Virus record (IMG/VR): IMGVR_UViG_2534682162_000002
Reading direction: 5' to 3' (one strand)
DNA: 5,288 nt
Origin: a virus
Taxonomy: Duplodnaviria > Heunggongvirae > Uroviricota > Caudoviricetes
Part shown: piece by piece, positions 1,248 to 3,206 of the stretch
How positions within the stretch are numbered: the stretch's first letter is position 1
Layout: every line of letters begins with the position of its first letter
Notes under the pieces: model-generated
The model's database searches: none
What the model was told of the DNA's origin: nothing
What the model saw: the letters and a program-made list of their open reading frames with translations, nothing else
Made by a program: the position numbers and the translations under genes

Positions 1248-1595
1248 TCAACTCACAGGGATGGTTAACGAAAGTGGCTGGCCGGTGTCGTTGTGCTGAC
1301 CGGTTAACGTGACCGTCATTCGCCCGTCAAAACTGCGCGCCGTGGTGACGGATGACAGGGTGACGCGGGGTTCCCATTTCAGTACCGCCATGTAACAGGC
1401 GACCTTAATCTGCAACTCAAGCGCCGGGGTCTGCGGCTGGTCAATCATTGACGCCAGCAACGAGCCGTAATCACGACGCATCACCCGTGAGCCGACCGGT
1501 GTGCGCAGGATATCGCCGATACTCTGGCTGATATGCTCAAGGTCAGTGACAGTCAGGCCATCACTGCGATTCATTCCGAGATAACGCGCTGTCAT
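1248..1595 (-). CDS. W: Baseplate wedge protein W (T4 gp25-like)
   Basis: 115-aa ORF (MTARYLGMNRSDGLTVTDLEHISQSIGDIL...). GGGAG Shine-Dalgarno about 10 nt upstream. ATGA start/stop overlap with V at 1592..1595. Size and position match P2 gpW. Confidence 0.93.
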   Translation of the reverse strand: MTARYLGMNRSDGLTVTDLEHISQSIGDILRTPVGSRVMRRDYGSLLASMIDQPQTPALELQIKVACYMAVLKWEPRVTLSSVTTARSFDGRMTVTLTGQHNDTGQPLSLTIPVS

Positions 1596-2227
1596 AGAGG
1601 ACTCCCGGTTGTGCCGCCGCTGTCGCCGGGATGTTTATGGGTATGCAGTACCTTACCGTTTGATGAGAGTTCACCGCCGGTGTGTTCAATGTTGCCGCGC
1701 ATCGTCCCGCCCTTCTGCACTTCCAGCGTGCCGGTAATCAGCTTGTTTGTGCAGACCACCTCCGGTGTGTCCAGGGTGACGCGGGTTGATGCTTTCACCA
1801 TGACCACCGGCACCGTGGCAGTAACAGAATCAGAAGCCGTCACGCTGGCCGTTTTAATTCCGCTTACCGTGAGTGCACTGGTTTCGGGTTCATACTCAAT
1901 CACCGCCCCGTCAGGGAAACGGATATGCAGGGCATCCGCCGACGCAGACGGCGCAGGGTTATCGCCGGAATAAATCCCCGGCAGAACGAACGCCGTGTCG
2001 AGTTCACCGCCAACGGCCAGAATCAGCACCTGTTCCCCCACGGAAGGTGCCCACCATGTGCGCGAACGCCCGGCGCGATGGGTCAGCCACTGAAGCCAGT
2101 CGGTGCACATGCCGCCGGTCTGCACACGGCAGCGACCGGCGTTAAGGTCGGTTTCGACGATAATGCCGGTGCGTATCATGTTGCGCAGTGCGCGCGCGAG
2201 TTCCTGAATATTTGCGAGAGTGTTCAT
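1592..2227 (-). CDS. V: Baseplate central spike protein V
   Basis: 211-aa ORF (MNTLANIQELARALRNMIRTGIIVETDLNAG...). First gene after the only intergenic gap, as for the first gene of the P2 V operon. C-terminal HTHKH motif at residues 195-199. No obvious Shine-Dalgarno upstream of the ATG. Confidence 0.93.
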   Translation of the reverse strand: MNTLANIQELARALRNMIRTGIIVETDLNAGRCRVQTGGMCTDWLQWLTHRAGRSRTWWAPSVGEQVLILAVGGELDTAFVLPGIYSGDNPAPSASADALHIRFPDGAVIEYEPETSALTVSGIKTASVTASDSVTATVPVVMVKASTRVTLDTPEVVCTNKLITGTLEVQKGGTMRGNIEHTGGELSSNGKVLHTHKHPGDSGGTTGSPL

Positions 2228-2339
2228 AACGGGAAGGATGCCGCCGGGTCATACCGGCGGCAATGTGACGATGAGGTGTCAGGAATGGCACAACTAACGG
2301 TCGAGGTGAGCCAGGATAATCTCTTCAATCATCTGCACA
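2228..2339 (-). promoter_or_regulatory. Candidate late promoter region for the V-W-J-I operon (PV-like, Ogr-type activator dependent); exact elements not resolved
   Basis: In P2 the V operon has its own activator-dependent late promoter upstream of V, overlapping the end of S. Two TGT/ACA-type dyads are visible on the minus strand: a perfect TGT-N10-ACA at 2277..2292 and an imperfect TGT-N12-AGA at 2322..2339 inside the 3' end of S. The remembered consensus is TGT-N12-ACA centred near -55. I cannot say which, if either, is functional. Confidence 0.35.
2239..2262. other. GC-rich perfect inverted repeat (9-bp stem TGCCGCCGG / CCGGCGGCA, 6-nt loop GTCATA); function unassigned
   Basis: Read directly from the sequence at 2239..2262. 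It lies in the S-V gap, 11 nt upstream of the V ATG on the transcribed (minus) strand, and is followed in that direction by the pyrimidine-rich stretch UCCUUCCCGUU. Confidence 0.6.
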
Positions 2340-2746
2340 TCCTCACCGGTAAAGCCGAGCAGAGGACGCGCCGGATAATCAATTTTCTTACCGTCTTTCC
2401 GGGTTTCTTCCGACAGACCGAACTGATGCACACTGGCGATTTTCGGCGACTTCCCGCCGTAAAATTCCATTGATGCCTGTTCCGGGCTGGCGCGGATATG
2501 CAAAAAACGACTGGTGATAAGTTTCGCAAACATTTTTCGCTTAACACGACCGGTCTTTTTTCTGGCGCTCTGCTGCTGGCGTGGCGCGTAGGGTGTGCCG
2601 TCCGGGGCTTTCTGTGCCATCACCCGACGCTGCTGACTCTGCCGCAGACGCTTCGCCAGTTCGGCACTCAGTCGTCGACGCCCTGACGGTGACAGCGACT
2701 CAATCAGTCCGGTCAGCCGGTCTTCAAAACGCTTAAACTCATTCAT
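2294..2746 (-). CDS. S: Tail completion protein S
   Basis: 150-aa ORF (MNEFKRFEDRLTGLIESLSPSGRRRLSAELAKRL...). Start overlaps the R stop (ATGAATGA). Last gene before the intergenic gap, consistent with the end of the P2 O operon. Confidence 0.92.
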   Translation of the reverse strand: MNEFKRFEDRLTGLIESLSPSGRRRLSAELAKRLRQSQQRRVMAQKAPDGTPYAPRQQQSARKKTGRVKRKMFAKLITSRFLHIRASPEQASMEFYGGKSPKIASVHQFGLSEETRKDGKKIDYPARPLLGFTGEDVQMIEEIILAHLDR

Positions 2747-3206
2747 CCCACTTGCTCACCAGTTCGCCATTGATATAAAGCTCCATCGGGCGGGTGACCG
2801 GCTCCGGCGGCGGAGGTTCCGGGATATTCTTCACATGCAGTGCGCCGTCAACCTCACTGACCAGCGTGCGCTCGGTCAGCATCAGGCTGATACTGATATC
2901 AAAGCTGCTGTCATTGTTGATGTCCGCATAAAACGTGAAGCCCTTTTTCTGGCCTTCGTCGGTGGTCATGATGTCGGGCTGATTTTCCCGCAGCCACGCC
3001 AGCACCGGCACGATGAGCAGGTCAAAATCACCGGTAAAGTCGGTCACAATGACATTGAGCGTGTAACGCTTTTCGAATGACAACGACGCCGCCAGCGTGG
3101 AGGCAATACTCCCGTTATCCACGAATATCCGCAGCATATCGGGGTTAGTTTTCAACACCGTGACGGCATCAGTCAGCGCCCTGCGCAGGCTGTCGGGTTT
3201 GAGCAT
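2739..3206 (-). CDS. R: Tail completion protein R
   Basis: 155-aa ORF (MLKPDSLRRALTDAVTVLKTNPDMLRIFVDNGS...). AGGA Shine-Dalgarno about 9 nt upstream of the ATG at 3204..3206. The 5' end is overlapped by the 3' end of lysC. Confidence 0.92.
   Translation of the reverse strand: MLKPDSLRRALTDAVTVLKTNPDMLRIFVDNGSIASTLAASLSFEKRYTLNVIVTDFTGDFDLLIVPVLAWLRENQPDIMTTDEGQKKGFTFYADINNDSSFDISISLMLTERTLVSEVDGALHVKNIPEPPPPEPVTRPMELYINGELVSKWDE

Follow-up and report, generated by a model that had tools for sequence, protein, structure and literature searches.

A probable variant of the P2-type late promoter PV occupies the gap between genes S and V of a P2-like phage

Late transcription of bacteriophage P2 is switched on by an activator that contacts the C-terminal domain of the RNA polymerase alpha subunit. 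Leaderless mRNAs are known from phages and transposons of Escherichia coli, among them the message of lambda cI transcribed from PRM and, as a textbook case, that of P2 gene V. In the P2 record (AF063097), the activator site of the promoter PV is annotated at 10239..10266 and the start of the V operon at 10308, i.e. on the first base of the V coding sequence. Downstream of gene S, P2 has first a putative terminator, next orf30 (786 bp, opposite strand), and only then the PV site; the orf30 locus is known as a variable region (PMC3091744). The other late promoters annotated in these phages, P2 PO/PP and PF, 186 pV/p12 and pJ, and P4 Psid, which depend on Ogr, B, or Delta, have TTGTG at −65 to −67 (relative to the annotated starts, −65 in P2 PO and −67 in PF), an A-T-N-G-C block about 30 nt further downstream, a weak −10 element, and no consensus −35 element. 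Their transcripts have leaders with ribosome-binding sites; for PO, +1 is at 3127 and the ATG of O at 3167. The activator site has been given, in a secondary statement, the consensus TGT-N12-ACA (PMC3931495), and its right half in these promoters is usually CCA at N12.

The window that we analyzed, i.e. the whole stretch of 5,288 nucleotides, is filled by the late region of a P2-like phage (Peduovirus) of the Wphi/L-413C type and reads on the minus strand. Over its full length it shows about 97% DNA identity to P2-like phages, with fiAA91-ss, Wphi, L-413C, and their relatives as the best matches. The minus-strand gene order is X, Y, K, lysA, lysB, lysC, R, S, V, W, J, and the start of I. Gene S (tail completion, 2294..2746 in the list of open reading frames), which matches gpS of Wphi, L-413C, and fiAA91-ss with 97% DNA identity, is the last gene of the O late operon and ends in a TAG stop codon at 2296..2294. 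Gene V (baseplate spike, 1592..2227 in the same list), whose product reaches 99.5% amino-acid identity with annotated gpV, heads the V-W-J-I late operon and has its ATG at 2227..2225. The 66 bp between the two genes (2293..2228), described in the initial annotation as the single non-coding gap, are the only sizeable one, the other intergenic gaps measuring 3, 14, and 4 nt when the open reading frames are mapped on the Wphi annotation. A scan of the window against Rfam returned one sub-threshold miRNA match, located elsewhere than in this gap.

We propose, with a probability of roughly 0.78, that the whole S-V gap is a P2-like late promoter PV, in a sequence variant unlike the PV mapped in P2. 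The gap sits directly upstream of the late morphogenetic operon V-W-J-I and contains, on the minus strand, an ordered set of candidate elements. The predicted site for the Ogr-type activator covers 2274..2294 and reads G-TTGT-GCCATTCCTGAC-ACCT, its first base, G2294, doubling as the third base of the S stop codon. The core, TGT-N12-ACC at 2292..2275, has one mismatch to TGT-N12-ACA, and its centre lies 56.5 nt upstream of the V ATG, the register of P2 PV. The right half-site is poor, with ACC instead of the expected ACA and a C at −48 where most lineages have A. A −35-like element, TTGCCG (2258..2263, −36 to −31), aligns with the ATAGC/ATGGC block of P2 PF, PV, and PO and of 186 pJ. After a spacer of 17 nt (2257..2241, −30 to −14) comes a −10-like element, CATCCT (2235..2240, −13 to −8), at the place where P2 PV has CAATCT. 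The predicted transcription start, derived from this geometry and from the P2 annotation, is position 2227, the A of the V ATG. TTGCCG-N17-CATCCT makes a weak core promoter that lacks a consensus −35 element, and a sigma-70 promoter scan of 1900..2700 found no consensus promoter, as would be expected if the promoter depends on an activator.

By analogy with P2, Ogr, a zinc-finger activator, would bind the partial dyad right after the S stop codon (TTGT-N12-ACCT, 2293..2274, centred at about −56) and would recruit sigma-70 RNA polymerase to the weak core (2263..2258 and 2240..2235). Transcription would then begin on the A of the V ATG, or one base earlier, and produce a leaderless V-W-J-I... 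message that could be translated independently of a Shine-Dalgarno sequence.

The initial annotation had also placed a late promoter with an Ogr-type operator between S and V, and had singled out two dyads, TGT-N10-ACA at 2277..2292 and, in the 3' end of S, TGT-N12-AGA at 2339..2322 (minus strand). Both dyads are present at these positions; taken as motifs, neither is significant, both kinds occurring at chance frequency. The window contains 26 matches to TGT-N12-ACA with at most one mismatch, against 24.2 expected, and a single TGT-N10-ACA, against 1.4 expected. Such motifs can thus acquire meaning only from their position and from comparison with other sequences, and since three overlapping one-mismatch N12 dyads occur in or beside the gap, the choice among them cannot be made on the motif alone. 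When position and comparison are considered, the expectation of PV inside the gap holds, on the grounds of the P2 PV register, the conserved blocks, and the top profile rank presented below, and the conserved TTGT register and the first rank likewise favor an operator there, as a predicted site. The left half of the N10 dyad is the anchor of the predicted operator, TTGT(G), right behind the S stop codon; read with N12 spacing, it gives the TGT-N12-ACC with which the dyad overlaps. A third one-mismatch dyad, TGA-N12-ACA at 2281..2264, was rejected, as it scores poorly and would put the start inside V.

A position weight matrix was built from annotated late promoters other than PV (P2 PO and PF, 186 pV and pJ, and P4 Psid). 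Minus-strand position 2293 ranked first among the approximately 10,500 positions of the window with profile lengths of 25, 45, and 66 nt. Its score was reached in 8 of 100 shuffled windows with the 25-nt profile, in 4 of 100 with the 45-nt profile, and in 1 of 100 with the 66-nt profile, so that the activator site alone, as captured by the 25-nt profile, barely exceeds the best chance match. A match of the site-only profile at minus-strand position 1456, inside W, was discarded; it has TGGC in place of TTGT and disappears in the longer models.

In order to compare the gap with equivalent regions, we collected 160 V-upstream sequences from 80 IMG/VR contigs, 80 species-representative genomes, and phage records (including 186, Fels-2, MHG7, Midge, and SEN1), and collapsed near-duplicates to 65 sequences. 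In 62 of these 65, TTGT starts 66 or 65 nt upstream of the V ATG (34 and 28 sequences, respectively, with 0–8 for any other position). The conserved blocks are GTTGT, a TTG 30 nt further on, GCAT.CT another 23 nt on, and the ATG 6 or 7 nt past the hexamer. The TTG is near-invariant at −36 to −34 (or −35 to −33), with 1.4–2.0 bits, and the GCAT.CT block reaches 1.1–2.0 bits across the lineages. The distance from promoter to ATG is constant to within 1 nt, the only variable interval being that between the −10 element and the ATG (6 or 7 nt). Two register classes can be distinguished, with the block 66 or 65 nt from the ATG and the end of the −10 element 7 or 6 nt from the A; both the window and P2 fall into the class with 7 nt. 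At the equivalent place, Fels-2 shows TGT-N12-ACA without any mismatch. Because the compared prophages are related, shared ancestry could be behind part of this conservation, but the sequences fall into about six families that are mutually unalignable outside the conserved blocks, which counters such an explanation. The gap is of the window type in 55 of 76 close IMG/VR relatives, of the P2 type in 18, and of other types in 3, with TTGT at −66 in every case. The exact 69-mer of the window is common to 10 IMG/VR loci; it has T at position 2281, inside the N12 spacer of the predicted activator site, whereas Wphi and most relatives have C (CCATTCCyGACACC), and the commonest C form is found in 29 loci.

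The promoter block stays with V at every locus, including those where S does not. Among 60 non-redundant V loci, the S homologue ends at most 100 nt from the V ATG in 11 and 0.8–1.06 kb upstream in 9, and it was not detected within the 1.2–1.5 kb upstream in the remaining 40. The insertion point of cargo is where the S stop codon meets GTTGT (2290..2296 in the window; around position 1135 in loci L092–L171), the point occupied in P2 by orf30. Insertion of cargo genes is precise, with the S stop codon on one side and the promoter block on the other.

Homology between P2 and the window stops at the S stop codon and returns with the ATG of V; the 66 bp that precede it are unrelated in sequence. 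P2 PV nevertheless heads the same operon, has TTGT exactly 66 nt before the V ATG, carries CAnnCT at −13 to −8, and has its annotated start on the ATG, as predicted for the window. It differs in being AT-rich, in having TAG instead of TTG at −36 and the right half-site at N11, and in the absence of a hairpin from its spacer; orf30 and a separate terminator also lie between S and the promoter in P2 and are missing from the window. Alignment with P2 PV, PO, and PF, the check suggested by the initial annotation, brings out the shared register; the site and the start predicted here differ from those that the annotation preferred. In its initial 9 nt, GTTGTGCCA, the window site is identical to the B site annotated for 186 pJ. 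Wphi, whose gap differs from that of the window by one base, encodes an Ogr identical to that of P2 in all 72 residues, suggesting that one activator serves both PV variants; the window itself, running from X to I, ends before the position of ogr.

An Ogr-dependent late promoter is a known kind of element, and the PV variant leaves the understanding of P2 late transcription unchanged. What is corrected are the details of operator, start site, and leader, and the allele is not the one mapped in P2: prophages of the commonest P2-like type, without orf30, would have as their PV an unrelated 66-mer with the same geometry. The combination of GTTGT at −67 to −63, TTG at −36, CATCCT at −13, and ATG at +1 offers a usable signature for PV and for the true V start in P2-like prophages.

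The spacer of the predicted promoter contains a GC-rich hairpin with a stem of 8–9 bp and a loop of 6 nt (2239..2262, minus strand; GCCGCCGG-tatgac-CCGGCGGC at 2261..2240). The fold of the S-V gap has a minimum free energy of −22.4 kcal/mol (z = −3.4); the stem itself is at about −19.5 kcal/mol. The hairpin occupies −35 to −12, within the spacer region between the −35-like and −10-like elements, and would accordingly lie upstream of the predicted start and be present as RNA only in transcripts reading through from S. A stable hairpin (−10 kcal/mol or better) is found in about half of the lineages (about 31 of 62) and is absent from the P2, 186, and Kosakonia types, which indicates that PV function does not need it; it would be dispensable for the promoter.

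Compatible with the promoter, and tentatively the most plausible role of this hairpin, though itself less likely than not, is that 2262..2239 forms a partial terminator of the O operon, or an insulator against any transcription from upstream, within the PV spacer, where polymerases arriving from there would halt just before the leaderless start. Like a Rho-independent terminator, it is a GC-rich stem-loop of 8–9 bp placed straight after the last gene of an operon, its stem is strong, and it is kept in about half of the lineages, some of them with AT-rich cargo upstream; P2, which lacks the hairpin, has instead a separate annotated terminator right after S. Unlike such a terminator, it sits in a promoter spacer and lacks a U tract, its 3' tail reading AUCCUUCCCGUU, for which reason the terminator scan did not call it. 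The formal pairing count exceeds its controls only modestly: pairing is found in 66.4% of cells versus 61.0% in shuffles (reached in 0 of 500), and the covariation score was matched in 2 of 500 shuffles. Wobble pairs on the sense strand are predominantly U-G, and a few pairs are changed on both sides (in L133, L163, and L171). However, the shuffle control for covariation is known to be lenient when sequences are related, and the covariation is weak to moderate, since the stem varies little in sequence over most of its length; we therefore make no claim of a proven RNA structure. Conservation of the stem could also have a reason at the DNA level, and the absence of the hairpin from 186, P2, and Kosakonia-type promoters counts against this role. 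That the hairpin acts as a functional RNA element, stopping read-through from the O operon or from cargo a few bases short of the leaderless start of V, is a slightly more doubtful proposition still. If true, V would be made solely from PV-initiated transcripts, and an overlapping terminator-promoter module would have been kept in about half of the enterobacterial P2-like lineages.

For the PV variant itself, the most likely transcription start is the V start codon (A2227), which would make the message leaderless. This position follows from its distance of 7 nt past the −10 hexamer and of 56.5 nt from the centre of the activator site, and from the start annotated in P2 AF063097. V lacks a Shine-Dalgarno sequence, as the initial annotation had remarked (upstream sequence ...ggcatccttcccgtt): no such sequence was found before V, the best anti-Shine-Dalgarno duplex reaching −5.0 kcal/mol at 12 nt from the start codon. 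V shows no coupling to S, and every other uncoupled gene of the window has a Shine-Dalgarno sequence. All 76 genome loci inspected have ATG as the start codon of V. The predicted promoter would explain the missing Shine-Dalgarno sequence, as a consequence of the leaderless mRNA, together with the invariant ATG and the promoter-to-ATG distance held within 1 nt. In these respects V resembles lambda cI expressed from PRM and P2 gene V, with a 5'-terminal AUG (predicted in the present case), no Shine-Dalgarno sequence, and strict retention of AUG. The same promoter could instead start a few bases upstream of the ATG and give a very short leader; a −10-to-A distance of 6 nt, as in the −65 class, would place the start at T2228. 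We consider this unlikely, as P2 has the same 7-nt distance with the start annotated on the A, and RNA polymerase generally favors a purine at the start.

Much less probable is that the gap contains no working promoter and serves as a spacer or attenuator, V being expressed by read-through of the O-operon transcript. The weak core elements would fit such an arrangement, and a hairpin without a U tract makes read-through from S likely. On the other hand, four blocks keep a fixed spacing in 62 of 65 lineages, including those in which S is not adjacent, the gap has the top score against independent late-promoter profiles, and P2 has a mapped PV in the same register; moreover, V on a polycistronic RNA would have neither a Shine-Dalgarno sequence nor coupling for its translation.

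The model preferred in the initial annotation, with the operator in the 3' end of S (TGT-N12-AGA, 2339..2322), a start near 2275, and a leader of about 48 nt including the hairpin, has the canonical N12 spacing with a single mismatch in its favor, but is hardly tenable: one-mismatch matches are at chance level, P2 S has the identical sequence about 0.95 kb from V with the annotated PV site elsewhere, the many lineages with cargo between S and V keep the conserved promoter block beside V, the known-late-promoter profiles rank the site only 24, 486, and 2164 (25-, 45-, and 66-nt models), no −10-like element was found by the scan where one is required, and a 48-nt leader without a Shine-Dalgarno sequence leaves the translation of V unexplained. 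We thus regard the S-internal dyad (2322..2339) as a chance match outside the promoter, and the evidence favors a start at A2227 (or T2228), with the hairpin upstream of it.

Beyond the PV variant of the window, several records of the comparison merit mention. The feature table of the Wphi record, inspected in full, holds CDS features only, and PV is not among them. In phage 186 (NC_001317), B-protein sites are annotated for p12/pV and pJ and none upstream of orf32, the V homologue; the sequence preceding orf32 (9660..9728) has TTGTG at −66, TTG at −36, CATTCT, and the ATG, i.e. the same architecture. Despite the identical Ogr, the upstream half of PF in Wphi (15734..15838), CTGTTGTTTCATCCACTGACCAG..., differs from that in P2 (17551..17655); TTGT, AAATAGC, and the −10 region are all that is retained. 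Activator sites in this group of phages thus appear to tolerate wholesale replacement around a few fixed bases. Finally, genome records titled Vagococcus sp. WN89Y (L095, L127), after a Firmicute, and Chryseobacterium sp. 18061 (L133), after a Bacteroidete, encode an enterobacterial-type P2 V with 78–87% amino-acid identity and show the same PV architecture; assembly contamination or mislabelling is the probable reason.
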